From Escherichia phage teqdroes: a stretch of DNA of 64,000 nt. Location: the sequence record NC_054932.1; one strand, written 5' to 3'. A model generated the notes under the pieces. It did no database searches. It was not told where the DNA came from and was given only the letters and a program-made list of their open reading frames with translations. This document shows, piece after piece, positions 45,520 to 64,000 of the stretch; positions within the stretch are counted from its first letter, which is position 1; the number at the start of each line of letters is the position of its first letter. A program made the position numbers and the translations under genes.

Positions 45520-46216
<697 letters not shown>

Positions 46217-48231: not shown

Positions 48232-48840
48232 ATGCATTTTTATCTTTATAAAATAACAAATAAAATTAATAATAAAATTTATATTGGTGTGCATTCTACC
48301 GAAAATTTAGATGATGGATATATGGGTTCTGGTAAATTATTAAAAAGAGCCCAAGACAAGTATGGTATAGAAAATTTCTCTAAAGAAATATTAGAGTATT
48401 TTGATGATAAAGAATCTATGCTTGAAGCCGAGAAAAATATTGTCACAGAAGAGTTTTTAAATAGACCAGATGTGTATAATTTAAAACTTGGCGGAGAAGG
48501 TGGATGGGACCATATAAATAATTATCCTATGACAGATCAGCAACGCGAATTAATTTCATTGGGTGTTAAAAAGGCACATTCTAACGGAAAATTAAAAGGA
48601 TGGTCTTCAAATGGATTAATGAAGAATGGCTTTGCTGGTAAAAATCATTCTCAAGAAGCTAAACGTAAAATAGCAAAAGCAAACGAAGCAAAAGTTTCTG
48701 CGGATGAAAGAAAAAGAAGAATAGAAATTTCTAAATTATATGATTTTTCTAAGCGTGGTGAATTATCTAAATATGCTAAGCATATTGGCGTAAGTCATAC
48801 TCAAGCAAAAAGAATTCTAAATCAAATTAACAATATATAA
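48232..48840 (+). mobile_element. segB: GIY-YIG homing endonuclease (SegB-like) inside the tRNA cluster
   Basis: FYLYKITNKINNKIYIGVH...YMGSG GIY-YIG motif; track ORF opens at 48190 but ATG 48232 has an AGGGA ribosome-binding site. Confidence 0.75.
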
Positions 48841-52356: not shown

Positions 52357-52965
52357 ATGAAAATGCAAAGTGATTTCAATTCAATGTTTGAAGAATTCCA
52401 AAGACAAGTTGATGTTCCAGACCAATTATTAAATGCTCTTAAACGTATGGCAGAAGGACGTAATTATTATTGGGGTTCTTCATATGAAACTGATGAAAGT
52501 CTTTCTGGAAGATTTTCTAGAGGTAAAAAGTCTTTAATACGTCCTGGAATACTTATTAACAGTATTGAATCAATTCATTCATTGACATGTGATTTTGATG
52601 TTGAATTTACTGATTTCATTTCTCCTGAATGGTCAGTTTGTTATTTAAACGACGATTTTGATTATCTCGGTGTTTATAGTTTAAGTGATGCATGGTTTAA
52701 ACGTAATTTACAAAAGTCAAATTTATTTTATATTGATACTACTGTAAAATTTCGGGGCAAGAAATATTTCTTTACTCTTATAGTTGATTCTGAAACTAAG
52801 CATGAAAATAAGCGTATTCTTAGTAAAAAGAATATCTTAACTATTGTTGATGATCTTTTTGATAAATTCGTGGAAAATCCTAGTTTTGAAAGCGATTTAT
52901 TACTAGAAAAATTTGTTAAGGAATGTAGAGAATATGTCAAAGCCATCAATGTATCTTCCAAGTAA
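52357..52965 (+). CDS. hypothetical protein, first member of the coupled tandem array
   Basis: 202-aa ORF; C-terminus FVKECREYV carries the shared junction motif. Confidence 0.5.
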   Translation: MKMQSDFNSMFEEFQRQVDVPDQLLNALKRMAEGRNYYWGSSYETDESLSGRFSRGKKSLIRPGILINSIESIHSLTCDFDVEFTDFISPEWSVCYLNDDFDYLGVYSLSDAWFKRNLQKSNLFYIDTTVKFRGKKYFFTLIVDSETKHENKRILSKKNILTIVDDLFDKFVENPSFESDLLLEKFVKECREYVKAINVSSK

Positions 52966-53326
52966 ACCCTTAAAGTATGAATTAAAGCGCCAGCTAATTT
53001 CTACTGATGTATTAATAGGTCCTGTAATAGCTGTATCATTTGTAATTCTACTGGGGGTTGGAATAGTTATAGATGTTATGACTGATATTGAATCTAATAT
53101 AATATTTGCGTCAACATTAATTCTTCCAATGATAGTTCCATTTTTATTAATACCTGTAAATTGGGTAGGATACTGGTATCAAGGAAGGCATTATCGTAAA
53201 CGCGTACGTGATTGGAAAGCACAGTGTAAAAAGATTAAAAAGGAACATCAGCTTAAACTTGCTGCGTATGAATTTGATGAAATTATGAAATTTGTTAAGG
53301 AATCACGATGCAAAAGCCAAAACTAA
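52934..53326 (+). CDS. predicted membrane protein (two transmembrane segments)
   Basis: ATG 52934 after AAGGAA; track ORF begins upstream at TTG; overlaps the previous ORF end. Confidence 0.5.
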   Translation: MSKPSMYLPSKPLKYELKRQLISTDVLIGPVIAVSFVILLGVGIVIDVMTDIESNIIFASTLILPMIVPFLLIPVNWVGYWYQGRHYRKRVRDWKAQCKKIKKEHQLKLAAYEFDEIMKFVKESRCKSQN

Positions 53327-53670
53327 ATAAAGTCAAATATTCGCTTCCTGAGTCATTTTTAATTTTTGCTGTGGCGTTGGCTGCAGCTCTTGCGGGTAGT
53401 CTTTTTGGATTGTTAATTGACTGTCTTATTTTAAACATTGACGGCACAGTAAATATAATAGAAGTTTGGAGTGAACTTCACTATACTAAAATTATTTCAT
53501 TATTTTCATTCTTTGGTACCATGTTATATTTTCATTATGATAATTTTAAAATAAATTGGCAAAGAAAAAAAGATTACAAAATACAATTAAAGGAATATAA
53601 TAGCTACATGTCTTATATTGAAAAAGAATCAATGGAAGAGTTTGTGAGTGATTGCAGGAAAATCAAATGA
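53308..53670 (+). CDS. predicted membrane protein
   Basis: 120-aa ORF with hydrophobic core; C-terminus DCRKIK. Confidence 0.5.
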   Translation: MQKPKLNKVKYSLPESFLIFAVALAAALAGSLFGLLIDCLILNIDGTVNIIEVWSELHYTKIISLFSFFGTMLYFHYDNFKINWQRKKDYKIQLKEYNSYMSYIEKESMEEFVSDCRKIK

Positions 53671-54155
53671 TTTTAAAAACTCGCTGGTATGATTTAGATG
53701 ACGGGGATGATGGCATTTCAGTTGATAGAGTTGACTGGAATGGCTGTTCCGAAGATATGAAAAATTTGCTGATTAGGGAGTTTAGAATGGGATATCAACC
53801 AGTTAAGCCATCTACTGCAACAGATGATAAATTCGTGTGTATTCATAATGGTCGCGCTAAATTAACGAACGCTGATTGGTTCACAGATAAAATTATGATT
53901 CTGTGGTACATTATTAGTTTTCCTGTGACATCATTTGTATTTTGCTTCTTTGGAGAAAGTCCAGTAGACAGAACGGGAGATTGGATTATTTTAACCATAC
54001 TTGTTAATATTTTTACAGCAGCAATACTATCTGGGATATGGTACACGTTCATTGAAATGCCATGGCGTTTACGCAGACAACAAAAGATTTTTGATGAAAA
54101 GAAATATACCCAAAATTTAAATAGCTTTATCACTGAATGCAGGAAATTAAAATGA
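53667..54155 (+). CDS. predicted membrane protein
   Basis: ATG overlaps the previous stop (ATGA); C-terminus ECRKLK. Confidence 0.5.
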   Translation: MILKTRWYDLDDGDDGISVDRVDWNGCSEDMKNLLIREFRMGYQPVKPSTATDDKFVCIHNGRAKLTNADWFTDKIMILWYIISFPVTSFVFCFFGESPVDRTGDWIILTILVNIFTAAILSGIWYTFIEMPWRLRRQQKIFDEKKYTQNLNSFITECRKLK

Positions 54156-54592
54156 AAACATTATCAGCTGGTATTATCTTTATGACAGAAGATAAAGATT
54201 TATTTATGGGTCGGGTTACTGGTTCTCGTAAGCCTGGAATGATGGCACATCGCTGGGATATTCCAAAAGGTCGTGTAGAATGTTCTGATTTGAGCGCATT
54301 AGATGCAGCACGAAGAGAATGTTTAGAAGAGACCGGTTTTAGCAATTATAATCCAGACCTTCTAGAAGACCTAGGTGTATTTAAATATTCTAGTAATAAA
54401 GACTTACAGTTATTTTATTATACGATTCCAGTAGAGCATGAGATGTTCAGAAATTGCCATTGCGAGTCTTATTTTGAAAATAAAGATGGCGTTATGATTC
54501 CAGAGATGGACGCTTTTGCTCTTATTCCTCGTACTCAGTGGCAATATGTGATGGGTCCTTCACTTTACCGAATAATGAACAACCTCTTTTAA
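54137..54592 (+). CDS. nudE: Nudix hydrolase NudE
   Basis: Nudix box GRVECSDLSALDAARRECLEETGF; alternative start at 54152 (ATGA overlap). Confidence 0.8.
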   Translation: MQEIKMKTLSAGIIFMTEDKDLFMGRVTGSRKPGMMAHRWDIPKGRVECSDLSALDAARRECLEETGFSNYNPDLLEDLGVFKYSSNKDLQLFYYTIPVEHEMFRNCHCESYFENKDGVMIPEMDAFALIPRTQWQYVMGPSLYRIMNNLF

Positions 54593-55123
<531 letters not shown>

Positions 55124-55126
55124 AGT

Positions 55127-55163
55127 TGTTTACTTTCTCCTAGAATTGTGATAGTATATTCAC
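55127..55163 (+). promoter_or_regulatory. early promoter with the -10 in a TGTGA/TCACA stem-loop
   Basis: GTTTAC then TGTGATAGTATAT. Confidence 0.5.
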
Positions 55164-55182
55164 AGTTACTTGGAGGGATAAA

Positions 55183-55599
55183 ATGACTCGTATTAATTTG
55201 ACTTTAGTATCTGAACTTGCTGATCAACATTTAATCGCAGAATACCGTGAATTGCCGCGTGTTTTTGGTATAGTTCGTAAGCATGTGGCAAACGGTAAGC
55301 GCGTTAAAGATTTTAAAATATCTTCTAAATTTATTTTAGGTTCTGGTCATGTTACTTTCTTTTACGATAAGTTAGAATTTTTGCGAAAGCGTCAATCGGA
55401 CATTATAACGGAATGCTTAAAACGCGGGTTCAGTATAAAAGATACTGAAGTTCCTGACATCAGCGATATTCCAGTAGAATGGAAAAATGATTATAATCCA
55501 TGCAAATCAGCTATTAAATTGAGTCAACAACGACTTGATGAAAAAATTTTAATGAAACCACATTGGTATAAGTATTACGGTAAAAATATTTACATTTAA
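55183..55599 (+). CDS. denV: endonuclease V, pyrimidine-dimer DNA glycosylase
   Basis: 138 aa, [17 protein letters not shown]...; recognised as T4 DenV-like. Confidence 0.9.
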
Positions 55600-55608
55600 A
55601 GGAAACAT

Positions 55609-56082
55609 ATGAAAACATATCAAGAATTTATCACTGAAGCAGCTATTAATTCTCAAATTATTGCTGAATCTTTTACTGATCTTTTGAAATTTAAAAAAGG
55701 TCAAAAAATCACTGCTGTATTGGATGATGGTACAGAAGTTGAGATGGATGTACAGGGATATAATTATGCAGTAGATGGAAAACTGTATAATAAATCTCAT
55801 GCTAAATTTGATTCATTTGACGACTTTGTTAATACAGTTGAAGATGAAAAAACTCGTAGATCCATTGCAACTGGTGATGCTAAGGTTCTTATGGCACATG
55901 GTCATGAACGCATTCGCGCTAAACAGAATAAAATGGGTGAAGATAATTTTGCATTAGTTGGTTATCAATCTGGTAAACAAACTTATGGCTATCAACGTAC
56001 TGCTACCATGTATAACAAAAATGGTAAAATTGCCTTTGTGAATAGTAAAGGTTCTATTCAGTACGTTAAATCGTTCAAATAA
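55609..56082 (+). CDS. internal-protein-like protein (157 aa) with canonical capsid-targeting N-terminus MKTYQEFITEA
   Basis: N-terminal 11 residues match the T4 internal-protein targeting sequence; AAGGA ribosome-binding site. Confidence 0.6.
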   Translation: MKTYQEFITEAAINSQIIAESFTDLLKFKKGQKITAVLDDGTEVEMDVQGYNYAVDGKLYNKSHAKFDSFDDFVNTVEDEKTRRSIATGDAKVLMAHGHERIRAKQNKMGEDNFALVGYQSGKQTYGYQRTATMYNKNGKIAFVNSKGSIQYVKSFK

Positions 56083-56187
56083 GCAAATAAGAAATATGGG
56101 AACAACCTGGACCTCATGATTCTGTGAGGGATTCCCGCCAACCTGTAATAAGGTCGAGCCTGAGCGCGGTAATGGGTAAATACAGAA

Positions 56188-56775
56188 ATGGAAAATTCAT
56201 GCGCCATGGAATGGCCCAAATTTAGAGATAACAAAATGAGAACATTTTTAACTGGTCCTTATCTATCCCTGATGAATGCTTTTACACACCATTCTGATGC
56301 TAGAGTAGAAGAAATTTGTAAAAACGATTATATCCCACCATTTGAAGACTTACTCAAGCAGTATTGCACACTTCGATTAGATGGTGGCAGACAATCCGGT
56401 AAATCAACTGCTGTGACTAACTTTGCTGCTAATTGGCTGTATGATGGTGGAACAGTTATTGTTCTTTCTAATACTTCAGCTTACGCTAAAATTTCTGCAG
56501 GCCACATTAAAAAAGAATTTTCTCGTTATTCTGGCGATGATATTCGATTCCGCTTATTTACCGATTCTGTCCGTAGTTTTATCGGTAATAAAGGAAGCAA
56601 GTTCAGAGGTTTATCGCTTTCGCGGATTTTGTATATAATCGATGAGCCTGTTAAATCTCCTGATATGGATAAAATTTACGATATTCATATTGAAACTGTG
56701 CACCACTGTTGCAATAGTAAATGCTGCATTGGTGGTATTACTCGTCCACAGTTTTTCATAATCGGAATGCAATGA
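56188..56775 (+). CDS. hypothetical P-loop protein (vs.8 position)
   Basis: 195-aa ORF with Walker A-like GGRQSGKST. Confidence 0.5.
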   Translation: MENSCAMEWPKFRDNKMRTFLTGPYLSLMNAFTHHSDARVEEICKNDYIPPFEDLLKQYCTLRLDGGRQSGKSTAVTNFAANWLYDGGTVIVLSNTSAYAKISAGHIKKEFSRYSGDDIRFRLFTDSVRSFIGNKGSKFRGLSLSRILYIIDEPVKSPDMDKIYDIHIETVHHCCNSKCCIGGITRPQFFIIGMQ

Positions 56776-58230: not shown

Positions 58231-58260
58231 GTTTACTTTTCCTCTTGACTGTGGTATAAT
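58231..58260 (+). promoter_or_regulatory. early promoter (GTTTAC ... TGTGGTATAAT)
   Basis: Near-consensus extended -10. Confidence 0.6.
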
Positions 58261-58287: not shown

Positions 58288-58749
58288 ATGACTATCAATA
58301 CAGAAGTTTTTATCCGTCGAAATAAGCTTCGTCGTCACTTTGAGTCGGAGTTTCGTCAAATTAACAATGAGATTCGTGAGGCATCAAAAGCAGCAGGGGT
58401 CTCATCGTTTCATCTAAAATATTCTCAGCATCTTCTTGATCGTGCAATTCAACGGGAGATTGATGAGACATATGTTTTTGAATTATTCCATAAAATAAAA
58501 GACCATGTTTTAGAAGTTAATGAATTCCTGAGTATGCCTCCGCGTCCTGACATTGACGAGGATTTTATTGATGGGGTTGAATATCGTCCTGGACGTTTAG
58601 AAATCACAGATGGAAATCTTTGGCTTGGATTTACAGTTTGTAAGCCTAATGAGAAGTTCAAAAACCCGTCACTTCAATGCAGGATGGCAATTATCAACAG
58701 TCGTCGTTTACCAGGAAAGGCTTCTAAAGCAGTAATTAAAACTCAATGA
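58288..58749 (+). CDS. regB: site-specific endoribonuclease RegB
   Basis: 153 aa, MTINTEVFIRRNKLRRHFESEF...; recognised as T4 RegB-like; synteny. Confidence 0.85.
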   Translation: MTINTEVFIRRNKLRRHFESEFRQINNEIREASKAAGVSSFHLKYSQHLLDRAIQREIDETYVFELFHKIKDHVLEVNEFLSMPPRPDIDEDFIDGVEYRPGRLEITDGNLWLGFTVCKPNEKFKNPSLQCRMAIINSRRLPGKASKAVIKTQ

Positions 58750-58756
58750 GGTAAGC

Positions 58757-59302
58757 ATGAGAAAAGCACTACTCGCTGGTCTATTGGCCATTTCAATGAT
58801 GGCACATAGCTCCGAGCATACTTTCAGTAATGTCCAACTCGATAACATGCGTTACGCGTATCAATTCGGGGAACAATTTTCTAAGGATGGAAAATATAAA
58901 ACATACAAAAATATCCACAAGAGCGGATTAGGTCATATAATGGCAGCCATTTTATGGCAAGAAAGCTCTGGCGGAGTTAATTTAAAATCTAAACCAAAGC
59001 ATCACGCCTACGGAATGTTCCAAAATTATTTGCCTACTATGCGAGCAAGAGTTAAGGAACTTGGTTATAATATGACCGATGCTGAAATAAAAAGAATGTT
59101 GAATAAACGATCCAATTCAGCTTCCTGGGCGTACATTGAGCTTTCTTATTGGTTAAATATACATAAGGGCGATATAAGAAAAGCAATATCCTCTTATAAT
59201 TCGGGATGGAATGTTAAAGCAGGTTCTAAATATGCTTCTGAAGTCCTAGAAAAGGCTAATTACCTTAAAAATAATAAACTTTTGGAAATAGTAAATGACT
59301 AA
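58757..59302 (+). CDS. predicted secreted/periplasmic protein (vs.1 position)
   Basis: 181-aa ORF with N-terminal signal-peptide-like MRKALLAGLLAISMMAHS. Confidence 0.5.
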   Translation: MRKALLAGLLAISMMAHSSEHTFSNVQLDNMRYAYQFGEQFSKDGKYKTYKNIHKSGLGHIMAAILWQESSGGVNLKSKPKHHAYGMFQNYLPTMRARVKELGYNMTDAEIKRMLNKRSNSASWAYIELSYWLNIHKGDIRKAISSYNSGWNVKAGSKYASEVLEKANYLKNNKLLEIVND

Positions 59303-59636
59303 AATTTTGGTTTTATGTATAGGATTAATTTCATTTTCTGCGTTAGCAGATACATCATATACTGAAATTAGAGAGTATGTAAACCGTACTGCAGCGGATT
59401 ATTGTGGGAAAAATAAAGCATGCCAAGCTGAATTTGCGCAGAAATTAATATATGCATATAAAGACGGAGAAAGAGATAAATCAAGCAGATACAAAAACGA
59501 TACATTGTTAAAACGATATGCTAAAAAGTGGAATACCTTAGAATGTTCAGTTGCGGAGGAGAAAGATAAAGCCGCTTGTCATTCAATGGTTGACCGTTTA
59601 GTAGATTCTTATAATCGAGGATTGAGTACTAGATGA
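59295..59636 (+). CDS. predicted secreted protein (vs position)
   Basis: 113-aa ORF with signal-peptide-like MTKILVLCIGLISFSALA. Confidence 0.45.
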   Translation: MTKILVLCIGLISFSALADTSYTEIREYVNRTAADYCGKNKACQAEFAQKLIYAYKDGERDKSSRYKNDTLLKRYAKKWNTLECSVAEEKDKAACHSMVDRLVDSYNRGLSTR

Positions 59637-60112
59637 TTGTAAAATATATCAAGGGCGATATTGTCGCCCTATTTCTTCAAGGTAATATTATTGCGCACGG
59701 GTGCAATTGTTTTCATACTATGGGTTCAGGTGTAGCGGGTCAATTAGCAAGAGCCTATCCCAAAATTTTAGAAATAGATAAAACTACTACCGAGTACGGT
59801 TCTCGTGATAAATTAGGCGATATGTCTATTGTTTTTAAACATAATCCTACAGGATTTGGTATATGCTATAACCTGTATACGCAATACGAACCGGGTCCTA
59901 ATCTTGATTATGGTGCTTTAGTAAACTGCATGATAGAATTAAATCTACAGGCAGAAACCCTTTTGTTTAAACCAGTAATTTACATTCCACGCATAGGTTG
60001 TGGTATTGCTGGCGGTGATTGGGATAAGGTTTCTAAATTAATCGACATGTTTACTCCTGATATTGATTTAATAGTGGTGGATTATGAAAGTACATTACCC
60101 GCATCCGTTTGA
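59633..60112 (+). CDS. macro-domain-like protein (possible ADP-ribose binding or hydrolase)
   Basis: 159-aa ORF; AHGCNCFHTMGSGVAGQLARAYP resembles the macro-domain N-x-x-N ... G-x-G-V-A-x-x-[IL] core. Confidence 0.45.
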   Translation: MIVKYIKGDIVALFLQGNIIAHGCNCFHTMGSGVAGQLARAYPKILEIDKTTTEYGSRDKLGDMSIVFKHNPTGFGICYNLYTQYEPGPNLDYGALVNCMIELNLQAETLLFKPVIYIPRIGCGIAGGDWDKVSKLIDMFTPDIDLIVVDYESTLPASV

Positions 60113-60296
60113 TCCTAAAAACAAAGCAGAAATTATTCGTCAATGGGAACGCATTTGCCGTACTAAATGCCCAATTAATAGTCCACATGATGTAGATAAA
60201 GACTATATTGGAACATTCGTTGAATATACCTTTATTGATAGGAAAGGTCGTAAACAACATGTAGAAGAATATTGCTTAAAGGTTACATGGTTATGA
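60084..60296 (+). CDS. hypothetical protein
   Basis: 70-aa ORF overlapping the previous ORF end. Confidence 0.4.
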   Translation: MKVHYPHPFDPKNKAEIIRQWERICRTKCPINSPHDVDKDYIGTFVEYTFIDRKGRKQHVEEYCLKVTWL

Positions 60297-60499
60297 GCCA
60301 AACTAGTATTCTTAAAAATGCTCATTGTGAAAAGTGTAAATGGCCGGTTGTTTTTGCTTTATGTAATGATGAAATGGCTTGCGATTTCGATTATTGGTGC
60401 TATTGTTCTAATAAAGGATGCATCAATCATAAAGGTGAAGGATTTTATTCAGGATTTTATCCTTATCCTGATTTCGTTAAAGAAGGTAAACCAAAATGA
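60287..60499 (+). CDS. small Cys-rich protein (possible zinc-binding)
   Basis: CEKCKW...CNDEMACDFDYWCYCSNKGC; start 60287 or 60293. Confidence 0.45.
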   Translation: MVMSQTSILKNAHCEKCKWPVVFALCNDEMACDFDYWCYCSNKGCINHKGEGFYSGFYPYPDFVKEGKPK

Positions 60500-60672
60500 A
60501 TGATGATTTAAAATATCAACTATTACGTGAACTCGATGTTTTGATTGAACTTTCTGCACAAAAAGGATTTATAATTGGATCGGGTCAAAAAGACCCCAAC
60601 GGTCATTTAATCGTAGCGGTTATGAATCAGAAACGAGTCATTTTAAAACTTTTGGGGATTAACATACTGTGA
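60496..60672 (+). CDS. hypothetical small protein, 58 aa; not in the supplied ORF track
   Basis: ATG overlaps the previous stop (ATGA). Confidence 0.4.
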   Translation: MNDDLKYQLLRELDVLIELSAQKGFIIGSGQKDPNGHLIVAVMNQKRVILKLLGINIL

Positions 60673-60854
60673 GCCTAAGCAAAGAACAAAAAGATAAATT
60701 GTTTGAGCTTATCCATGAACTTCTAGATGAGCATACAGAAGCAAACACCTTTTATGATGAATACGGCCCGCTATCTCCCGAACAGCAGGAAGAATTTGCT
60801 GATCGGTTTGATAAGAAAGAAAATGAATTAATAGCTTATGTGAATACGCTTTAA
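60669..60854 (+). CDS. small helical protein, member of the ~60-aa paralog family
   Basis: GTG start overlapping the previous stop (GTGA); MSLSKEQKDKLFELIHELL. Confidence 0.4.
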   Translation: MSLSKEQKDKLFELIHELLDEHTEANTFYDEYGPLSPEQQEEFADRFDKKENELIAYVNTL

Positions 60855-60863
60855 GAAGGTGAT

Positions 60864-61445
60864 ATGGCGAGTTTAATTTTTACTTATGCAGCAATGAATG
60901 CTGGAAAATCTGCTTCTCTTTTAACTGCTGCGCATAATTATAAAGAACGTGGAATGAGTGTATTAGTTCTTAAGCCTGCTATTGATACTCGCGATTCTGT
61001 CTGTGAAGTCGTTTCTCGCATTGGAATTAAGCAGGAAGCGAATATTATTACAGATGATATGGATATTTTCGAGTTCTATAAATGGGCTGAAGCACAAAAA
61101 GATATTCATTGCGTATTTGTAGATGAAGCTCAGTTTTTAAAAACTGAACAGGTGCATCAATTGAGCCGAATTGTTGATACATATAATGTTCCTGTTATGG
61201 CTTATGGATTAAGGACTGATTTCGCTGGAAAATTATTTGAAGGTTCTAAAGAACTTTTAGCGATTGCAGATAAACTTATTGAACTAAAAGCAGTTTGTCA
61301 TTGTGGTAAAAAAGCGATTATGACAGCTCGATTAATGGAAGATGGAACACCAGTTAAAGAAGGTAATCAAATCTGTATTGGTGATGAAATTTATGTTTCT
61401 TTGTGTAGAAAACATTGGAATGAATTAACCAAAAAGCTCGGTTAG
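60864..61445 (+). CDS. tk: thymidine kinase
   Basis: 193 aa; P-loop AAMNAGKS; C-terminal CHCGK...C zinc motif. Confidence 0.9.
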   Translation: MASLIFTYAAMNAGKSASLLTAAHNYKERGMSVLVLKPAIDTRDSVCEVVSRIGIKQEANIITDDMDIFEFYKWAEAQKDIHCVFVDEAQFLKTEQVHQLSRIVDTYNVPVMAYGLRTDFAGKLFEGSKELLAIADKLIELKAVCHCGKKAIMTARLMEDGTPVKEGNQICIGDEIYVSLCRKHWNELTKKLG

Positions 61446-62484: not shown

Positions 62485-62673
62485 ATGAAAATTGAAGCAC
62501 TTAATCAAGAAGGAAATATCTACGTCATCATTAATGGTGATTTTTTCGTCGACATGGATGAAGTTACTAGTGAAGAACTTGTAGAACTTCTTAAGAAACG
62601 TTATAATATGTGTGATGAAGTTGCAACTCACATGGCGTGTGCAATATTCTCTCTTTCATATGTGGTGGAATAA
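62485..62673 (+). CDS. hypothetical small protein
   Basis: 62-aa ORF. Confidence 0.45.
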
Positions 62674-62876
62674 TGATTAGTATCGAACAAGCGGATAAGA
62701 TTAAAGAATTGGTAGCTTTAATTCGTAAAGCAGACGAGGAACTTAGTGACTTTGCTTGGTTTTCGTCAGGCATTGCAAATAAAGGCATTGATGAACTTGA
62801 AGCTAAAGTTGATAATGCTTTAGAAGCGTTAGATATGTTTCTTGATGAAATTATCGATCATAATACGAGAGTTTAA
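62673..62876 (+). CDS. small helical protein, paralog family
   Basis: Start [13 protein letters not shown] overlapping the previous stop. Confidence 0.45.
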   Translation: MISIEQADKIKELVALIRKADEELSDFAWFSSGIANKGIDELEAKVDNALEALDMFLDEIIDHNTRV

Positions 62877-63587: not shown

Positions 63588-64000
63588 ATGAAAGCTGTAA
63601 TTGAAACAACTGATTTGTTCGGTGACCTAGTTATCGAAAAACGCGGTAATGTATACGTTCTGACGCAGGAAGACGATAGTATTACTATTCTTCCTATGGA
63701 ACTGGCTGCGATTTTATCTTATGCTCCCTCAGGAGTTACCGGTGTAACTAATATTACAGGTGACCTCCAAGTTCGTTTTTATCGTGGCCTTTACGGCGGT
63801 AATATTGAAACTGAATTTATGTGTCTTTCTATCAACAATTGGGCAACATTCGTTGCCAAGGTGAAAGAATTCTTAGAATCTGAAACAGTTGAAACACCCG
63901 AAAAGGATAAACTTCAATGGGCTAAAGATCGCGGTGCTAACATTATTAATCCAGTAGCTGCAAACTATACTACGACTTTGGATGTCAAGACTTCTTATGA
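63588..64000 (+). CDS. hypothetical protein, 5' part (continues beyond the window end)
   Basis: ORF from ATG 63588 is open to the window end. Confidence 0.5.
   Translation, partial: MKAVIETTDLFGDLVIEKRGNVYVLTQEDDSITILPMELAAILSYAPSGVTGVTNITGDLQVRFYRGLYGGNIETEFMCLSINNWATFVAKVKEFLESETVETPEKDKLQWAKDRGANIINPVAANYTTTLDVKTSY

Follow-up and report, generated by a model that had tools for sequence, protein, structure and literature searches.

In this study, an open reading frame (ORF) of Escherichia phage teqdroes was analysed, which lies on the plus strand at 59633..60112 of a stretch of 64,000 nucleotides from sequence record NC_054932.1 (the window). The ORF is orthologous to tk.4 of phage T4, for which the name adfM (anti-DarT factor, macrodomain) was recently introduced, and judged by sequence and structure model its product is a stand-alone macro domain of the TARG1/ALC1-like class. 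Fold, class, conserved active-site residues, orthology and synteny were observed directly for the teqdroes protein. According to the best-supported reading, to which we assign a probability of about 0.75, it is a Tk.4/AdfM-type ADP-ribosyl-glycohydrolase reversing the thymidine ADP-ribosylation made by the toxin DarT2 on single-stranded phage DNA. This reading is based on the phenotype of T4 towards the defence system DarTG2 together with the activity of the related enzymes TARG1, DarG and SCO6735. The finding is nothing new in kind: A1pp is an old name for the macro domain, an A1pp/macro annotation of T4 tk.4 has existed for a long time, and genetic work has now assigned the gene the function of the anti-DarTG2 factor AdfM. 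The allelic form found in teqdroes is known, too, from hundreds of deposited genomes.

The ORF comprises 159 codons from ATG to TGA (stop at 60110-60112). The original prediction had described a 159-amino-acid protein containing IIAHGCNCFHTMGSGVAGQLARAYP at 59633-60112, upstream of tk. Exactly this ORF was found on the plus strand; IIAHGCNCFHTMGSGVAGQLARAYP forms residues 19-43 of its product, and the thymidine kinase gene tk (60864..61445) begins 752 nucleotides downstream. The likeness to macro domains goes well beyond chance. The macro-domain identity proposed for the protein was confirmed by two of the checks suggested for it, the profile search and the structure prediction, and the interpretation given in the original prediction is supported. 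In the Pfam search, Macro (PF01661) matched with 33.1 bits (gathering cut-off 22; E=5.8e-8) over profile positions 2-117 of 118. The structure model (AlphaFold2, AF2) was built on an alignment of 55 homologues from which the T4 sequence was left out. It reached a mean pLDDT (predicted local distance difference test) of 94.2 and a pTM (predicted template modelling score) of 0.89, with alternating strands and helices, and gave with high confidence the central mixed beta-sheet flanked by helices of a macro fold, matching solved macro domains. Both glycine-rich loops of the ADP-ribose cleft are present, MGSGVAG (residues 30-36) and IGCGIAGG (residues 121-128).

The class was assigned by comparison with solved structures. 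Matches of the single sequence in the PDB included BT1257 (1.6e-10), Poa1p (1.5e-9), SCO6735 (8.5e-8) and DarG (4.8e-5). With the family profile BT1257 (1.5e-18), TARG1 (2.2e-17), SCO6735 (3.9e-15), Poa1p (2.3e-14) and DarG (7e-12) were obtained. Foldseek against the PDB listed TARG1 first, with a template modelling (TM) score of 0.72-0.74, followed by the macrodomains of BT1257, Poa1p and DarG. Thus, the nearest neighbours in sequence and structure belong to the TARG1/ALC1-like class and not to MacroD, PARG or macroH2A. MacroD and YmdB, named as comparators in the original prediction, rank far below the TARG1-like set, and membership of the MacroD/YmdB type was rejected for this reason. DarG was the sole PADLOC model matched (PDLC02990; 27.7 bits, positions 3-144 of 329) and the best NCBIfam match (NF048014; 27.8 bits against a cut-off of 250, model positions 2-142 of 338). 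Membership of the DarG family (5M31, 5M3I, 7OMU) was rejected as well: the phage protein has no C-terminal DarT-binding domain, glutamine stands in place of the catalytic Lys80, and no darT is adjacent to the gene, whose neighbours are vs and tk.3 as in T4.

The active site was examined in a family alignment of 55-56 homologues with identities as low as 38%. Fifteen residues are invariant (H22, G23, N25, C26, G33, A35, D49, G62, N80, Y82, Q84, P119, G122, G124 and W130). Six of them, H22, G23, N25, C26, G33 and A35, lie in the first ADP-ribose-binding loop (codons 22-37, HGCNCFHTMGSGVAGQ, plus strand 59696..59743). The second, diphosphate-binding loop (codons 119-130, PRIGCGIAGGDW, plus strand 59987..60022; PRIGAGIGKGNW in T4 Tk.4) contains G124. 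Gln84, encoded by CAA at 59882..59884 on the plus strand, occupies the position of the catalytic lysines Lys84 of TARG1 and Lys80 of DarG and of the essential Gln85 of SCO6735. In the profile-to-PDB alignment, the family motif 'NlYtQy' stands opposite 'LITKK' of TARG1 and 'MIGQH' of BT1257, which places Q84 opposite Lys84 of TARG1 and the glutamine of BT1257; Ala126 is aligned with Asp125 of TARG1. Lys80 of DarG from T. aquaticus was equated with the Lys84 position of TARG1 before (PMC9411070). Mapped through the alignment of BT1257 with SCO6735, H22-G23-C24-N25 corresponds to H24-V25-C26-N27 of SCO6735, Q84 to Gln85 and G124 to Gly128. Furthermore, the invariant H22 is the equivalent of His23 of Poa1p.

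Experimental data on these positions are available for SCO6735. No activity remains in the variant Q85A or after mutation of Asn27, and G128E lowers the activity (PMC9411070). Even without the lysine of DarG and TARG1, SCO6735 strips ADP-ribose from thymidine in DNA and can rescue cells exposed to DarT (PMC9411070). In the phage family Q84, N25 and G124, the counterparts of Gln85, Asn27 and Gly128, are invariant in 55 homologues. The active site therefore appears to be of the SCO6735/BT1257 kind, with Gln84 replacing the catalytic lysine next to Asn25 and Gly124. This constellation implies that catalysis would be water-mediated rather than proceed through a lysine Schiff base. SCO6735 from Streptomyces coelicolor (PDB 5E3B) and BT1257 from Bacteroides (2FG1/2AFC) are Gln-type members of the TARG1/ALC1-like class and show about 26-29% identity. 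In contrast to SCO6735, whose mobile loop is extended by 5 residues and carries Lys89 and Lys94, the phage protein has a short loop: the distance from Q84 to Y93 is 9 residues, as in TARG1, compared to 14 in SCO6735. The loop of the phage protein (YEPGPNLD) contains no lysine, Lys34 of SCO6735 is replaced by Ser32, and compared with the profile of the phage family, BT1257 contains 6 inserted residues. Human TARG1/OARD1 (4J5S), the top Foldseek match, belongs to the same class and has a mobile loop of the same length (the conserved Tyr follows 9 residues after the catalytic position), but its dyad Lys84/Asp125 is Gln84/Ala126 in the phage protein. Due to the Gln-type centre without the long mobile loop, the protein forms a distinct phage branch of the TARG1/ALC1-like class, which is neither part of the DarG family nor a full match to the SCO6735 subclass.

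The orthology with T4 tk.4 results from the shared gene order and from the full-length identity of 58% to T4 Tk.4. Both genes occupy the slot between vs and tk.3, and the proteins (159 and 155 amino acids) can be aligned over their full length. The first 47 residues are 85% identical, and H22, N25, Q84, G122 and G124 are the same. However, the overall identity is only 58% though the flanking genes are 93-100% identical; the teqdroes protein is 4 residues longer at its C-terminus, and the overlap with tk.3 is 29 nucleotides instead of 4. In RefSeq, T4 tk.4 (NC_000866 60922-61389; NP_049723) is labelled "phosphatase; Tk.4; contains A1pp phosphatase motif". Other records name the same protein "macro domain containing protein", "Poa1p-like family protein" or "putative O-acetyl-ADP-ribose deacetylase", and PHROG 335, matched with E=1.6e-71, calls it phosphatase. 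Database names such as "phosphatase" and "Poa1p-like" are probably misleading for Tk.4. Relatives of the ORF product were detected by tblastn in 2776 of 50,697 phage records, with Escherichia, Klebsiella, Salmonella, Pseudomonas, Vibrio, Acinetobacter and Aeromonas as hosts. Macro domains were reported for approximately 41% of myoviruses (PMC9503650).

The functional assignment is derived from work on T4. When a T4 transposon library was grown on a host with DarTG2, tk.4 was the single significant hit; a clean knock-out of tk.4 was sensitive to DarTG2, and the gene was named adfM (bioRxiv 10.1101/2025.11.20.689424). Enzymatic removal of ADP-ribose from DNA by T4 Tk.4 'seems likely' according to these authors. 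Previously, T4 without adfA and adfN was still found to be resistant to DarTG2 and a further factor had been predicted (PMC11825919); this gap is filled by the tk.4 finding (bioRxiv 10.1101/2025.11.20.689424). Hydrolysis of thymidine-ADP-ribose on DNA is common to TARG1, DarG and SCO6735, which in addition hydrolyse uracil-ADP-ribose on single-stranded RNA (PMC9411070, PMC13036486). From these results we infer that Tk.4 acts enzymatically on DNA and that the 58%-identical teqdroes allele has the activity of T4 Tk.4. The gene would be expressed together with its early neighbours regB, vs.1, vs and tk.3. The protein would then bind the ADP-ribose put by DarT2 on thymidine of single-stranded phage DNA and hydrolyse the bond between base and ribose, which would release free ADP-ribose and restore a replicable template. 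In this way the phage could escape the abortive defence by DarTG2.

Some points weigh against this assignment. The searchable literature yielded no biochemical assay of a T-even Tk.4; the publications on CmdTAC and on the reversal of RNA ADP-ribosylation contain no test of the T4 macrodomain, and among T4 proteins only NADAR was assayed there. The demonstrated anti-DarTG2 phenotype belongs to the T4 allele alone, to which the teqdroes allele is 58% identical, with 18-38% in residues 48-79 and 132-159. The similarity to Poa1p, an ADP-ribose-1''-phosphate phosphatase, is about as strong as that to DarG, and the DarT-binding C-terminal domain of DarG is absent. Moreover, the extended basic mobile loop (Lys89/Lys94), which was proposed to hold the DNA in SCO6735, is missing, the aligned loop being 5 residues shorter.

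Four other explanations were considered. The protein could be a Poa1p-like phosphatase or hydrolase of small ADP-ribose derivatives (ADP-ribose-1''-phosphate, O-acetyl-ADP-ribose, immune signals), clearing by-products or signals without any part in DNA repair, which we regard as unlikely. The RefSeq entry of T4 and PHROG 335 carry the label phosphatase, and an 'A1pp phosphatase motif' implies such a role. Yeast Poa1p (6LFQ), known as ADP-ribose-1''-phosphate phosphatase, belongs to the same class and has the H-x-C-N-C motif in common with the phage protein. However, the likeness of Tk.4 to this enzyme is one of sequence and fold, and 'phosphatase' is a transferred name. To our knowledge, RNA repair in T4 by polynucleotide kinase and RNA ligase 1 leaves no 2'-phosphate and consequently yields no ADP-ribose-1''-phosphate. 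Iyer et al. (PMC9503650) argued that phage macro domains mainly target low-molecular-weight ADP-ribose derivatives, but such an activity leaves unexplained that the T4 screen ties tk.4 specifically to DarTG2, a DNA-modifying system. De-modification of proteins was judged very unlikely; it would concern the marks set by phage Alt, ModA and ModB, whose removal would tune the host take-over, or by host defence transferases. T4-type phages encode three ADP-ribosyltransferases; that they carry such enzymes was an argument of the original prediction. The linkage made by Alt, ModA and ModB is to arginine, though, and we know of no cleavage of it by TARG1-like macro domains. TARG1 and SCO6735 de-modify proteins, too (PMC9411070), but the Lys/Asp dyad of TARG1 for Glu/Asp-linked protein substrates is absent from the phage protein (Gln84 and Ala126 instead). 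Furthermore, no requirement for tk.4 was reported on plain E. coli K-12; the gene became conspicuous only in the presence of DarTG2.

Uracil-linked ADP-ribosylated RNA as the main substrate, with protection of phage transcripts rather than DNA, is a shade less probable again. The hydrolysis of uracil-ADP-ribose on single-stranded RNA by TARG1, DarG and SCO6735 (PMC13036486) makes it a plausible side activity. However, no bacterial defence making uracil-ADP-ribose on RNA was described in the literature found, and DNA accounts for the DarTG2 phenotype. CmdT modifies adenine in mRNA, and since CmdTAC defends robustly against T-even phages (PMC11618068), T-even Tk.4 does not neutralise this system. 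The lowest probability of all was given to a non-catalytic protection, either by binding and blocking the DarT2 toxin or by sequestering the ADP-ribose ligand. The catalytically dead variants SCO6735 Q85A, DarG K80A and TARG1 K84A still inhibit DarT in vitro (PMC9411070), and the Tk.4 alleles diverge outside the active site, as expected of an evolving protein-protein interface. In contrast, N25, Q84 and G124 are strictly invariant across distant homologues, which indicates selection for catalysis, and the DarT-binding domain of DarG is missing.

Two enzymes encoded in the same genome arm as tk.4 may be mentioned here. NudE, a Nudix hydrolase 98% identical to T4 and located 5 kb upstream, has ADP-ribose as an annotated substrate; it could clear the ADP-ribose set free by the macrodomain. 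An orthologue of 57B/Acb1 (99-100%), a nuclease directed against the cyclic oligonucleotide-based anti-phage signalling system (CBASS), is present as well (54137-54592 and 45761-46216 for these genes). This arm is rich in counter-defence and nucleotide-signal enzymes.

The name AdfM has independently been given also to gp104 of phage PhiKZ, like Tk.4 a stand-alone phage macrodomain countering DarTG2 (PMC13309987). Removal of ADP-ribose from DarT2-modified DNA by gp104 was demonstrated in vitro, and a conserved Asn was needed (PMC13309987). However, its similarity to the teqdroes protein is marginal (BLASTP E=0.001 over 33 residues), gp104 has kept the 'PTK' lysine typical of DarG, and its import into the phage nucleus is a further difference. 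By their sequences, T-even AdfM represents the Gln-type (SCO6735-like) branch and PhiKZ AdfM the Lys-type (DarG-like) branch. T4 Tk.4 and PhiKZ gp104 therefore appear to be independent recruitments under the same name, and phages would have recruited thymidine-ADP-ribose hydrolases at least twice, with different chemistry. One name for two barely similar macrodomains may cause confusion in annotation. SCO6735, which has been linked to antibiotic production, is a protein of cells, in contrast to the viral, counter-defence protein described here. A homologue from Pelagimonas (40% identity) stands alone among housekeeping genes without a darT neighbour; this fits a descent from SCO6735-like cellular enzymes rather than from an antitoxin, though a single bacterial example cannot decide the question.

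The comparison of the window ORFs with 54 kb of T4 revealed an exchange at tk.4. Nearly all orthologues are 96-100% identical to T4 and a few show 72-88%. With 58% over its full length, Tk.4 is by far the most diverged syntenic gene in about 52 kb; a lower value was obtained solely for a MobD.1-like ORF at the edge of the window (37.5%). In contrast, Tk.4 is 93% identical to Tk.4 of Dhakavirus JS98, whereas RegB, Vs.1, Vs, Tk.3 and Tk share only 45-74% with JS98. The sliding nucleotide identity to T4 is about 1.0 until approximately 59660, drops to 0.3-0.7 through tk.4 and recovers after approximately 60120. The profile for JS98 is its mirror image, with about 0.9 across 59660-60140 and 0.4-0.7 in the flanks. 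The Dhakavirus-like block on the plus strand (approximately 59660..60140) hence takes in the body of tk.4 as far as its overlap with tk.3. A second JS98-like patch was noticed in a tk.2-like ORF at 60669-60854, whose protein is 88.5% identical to JS98 and 52% to T4. Both patches show about 90% nucleotide identity to JS98 and lie within a backbone 97-100% identical to T4 and T6. Both are recombinational swaps, each confined to one gene, and tk.4 was thus exchanged with a Dhakavirus-like lineage as a single-gene cassette at an anti-defence locus. Such a swap is ordinary T-even mosaicism, yet it affects a counter-defence gene; single-gene exchange of this kind is typical of loci under arms-race pressure.

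Both alleles are widespread. The teqdroes type was present in 311 phage records (>=90% identity), the T4 type in 224 at >=90% and in a further 159 at 80-90%. The identity between teqdroes Tk.4 and T4 Tk.4 is unevenly distributed, with 85% in residues 1-47, 38% in 48-79, 71% in 80-100, 50% in 101-118, 69% in 119-131 and 18% in 132-159. In the second binding loop teqdroes has the family consensus IGCGIAGGDW and T4 has IGAGIGKGNW. It is rather doubtful that the two alleles, found on near-identical T4-type backbones, are functionally non-equivalent; if they were, the swap would alter the range of hosts and defence systems that the phage overcomes. The divergence in residues 48-79 and 132-159 could stem from a co-evolution with different DarT2 toxins by way of direct binding, of the kind seen with the catalytic mutants of SCO6735 and DarG. 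It could also result from the evasion of a host factor sensing or inhibiting the macrodomain, or from a shifted substrate range including other ADP-ribosylated bases or RNA.

By its genomic neighbourhood, the window is very closely related to phage T4. A segment of 2.5 kb around the ORF is 98% identical to many Tequatrovirus genomes, including GiZh, ECO4, phiD1 and Kha5h, and the order regB, vs.1, vs, tk.4, tk.3 ... tk is that of T4. The slot between vs and tk.3 is occupied by tk.4 in T4, T6, JS98 and AnYang as well. The genes regB (58288-58749), vs.1 (58757-59302), vs (valyl-tRNA synthetase modifier, 59295..59636), tk.4 and tk.3 (60084..60296) form a tightly packed run on the plus strand. RegB, Vs.1 and Vs are 97-99% identical to T4 (Vs 97%) and Tk.3 93%; tk.3 starts 29 nucleotides before the stop of tk.4. 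Four small ORFs separate tk.4 from tk, which lies on the same strand and whose product is 99.5% identical to T4 Tk; the range for Tk, RI.1, RI and RI.-1 is 99.5-100%. The TGA stop of vs overlaps the ATG start of tk.4 (ATGA), which implies a shared transcript of both genes and probably coupled translation.

In a consensus scan for sigma-70-like promoters, the best match (TTTACT, 17 nucleotides, TATAAT preceded by TG) was located at 58232..58260 on the plus strand, upstream of regB. It is a weak candidate for an early promoter of regB, vs.1, vs, tk.4 and tk.3, as promoter-like sites were not enriched in the region scanned (15 found, 20.6 expected in shuffled sequence). A regular-expression search for MotA boxes yielded a single motif, TGCTTTA followed after 12 nucleotides by the -10 element TAGAAT, inside tk.4 (59914-59939); this could be a middle-mode promoter for tk.3 through tk. 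Furthermore, a perfect 8-bp GC-rich hairpin (AGGGCGAT-ATT-GTCGCCCT, -12.9 kcal/mol) followed by a T-rich tail was detected at 59652-59670, within codons 7-13 of tk.4. The first approximately 40 nucleotides of the gene including the hairpin are almost identical in T4. The GenBank record of ECML-123-2 has a 'terminator' annotated among the features under the tk.4 match, which may or may not coincide with the hairpin. The hairpin may attenuate transcription, slow translation or be a by-product of the GDIVA codons.

Between tk.3 and tk the region 60272-60860 is variable. Three small ORFs (75, 58 and 61 amino acids) replace T4 tk.2 and tk.1, and no match to T4 tk.1 was found anywhere in the window. 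The 75-amino-acid ORF has a counterpart of 100% identity at this position in T6; its product is cysteine-rich (CEKC...CNDEMAC...CYCSNKGC) and may be a zinc-binding protein.

Further differences from T4 were observed in other parts of the window. In the internal-protein locus (55123-56188), the lysozyme gene e is immediately followed by denV (78% identical to T4). In the window comparison T4 ipIII gave no match and ipII matched weakly (31%). A 157-amino-acid ORF at 55609-56082 starts with MKTYQEFITEAA, which resembles the capsid-targeting leader of the T4 internal proteins. This ORF probably encodes an alternative internal protein that is injected, possibly with an anti-restriction function. 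In the tRNA region, a stretch at 48232-48708 encodes a GIY-YIG homing endonuclease of the seg type, with 83% identity to T4 SegB over 99 of 221 residues and 38-44% to SegC and SegD; it represents another seg gene or what remains of a seg gene. Other less T4-like genes are found at 52934-54155, 56188-56775, 62673-62876 and 63588-64000, namely e.4 (83%), e.3 (88%), an ORF of the e.2 region (72-83%), vs.8 (88%), an ORF of the mobD.3/4 region (76%) and the MobD.1-like ORF at the edge (37.5%).

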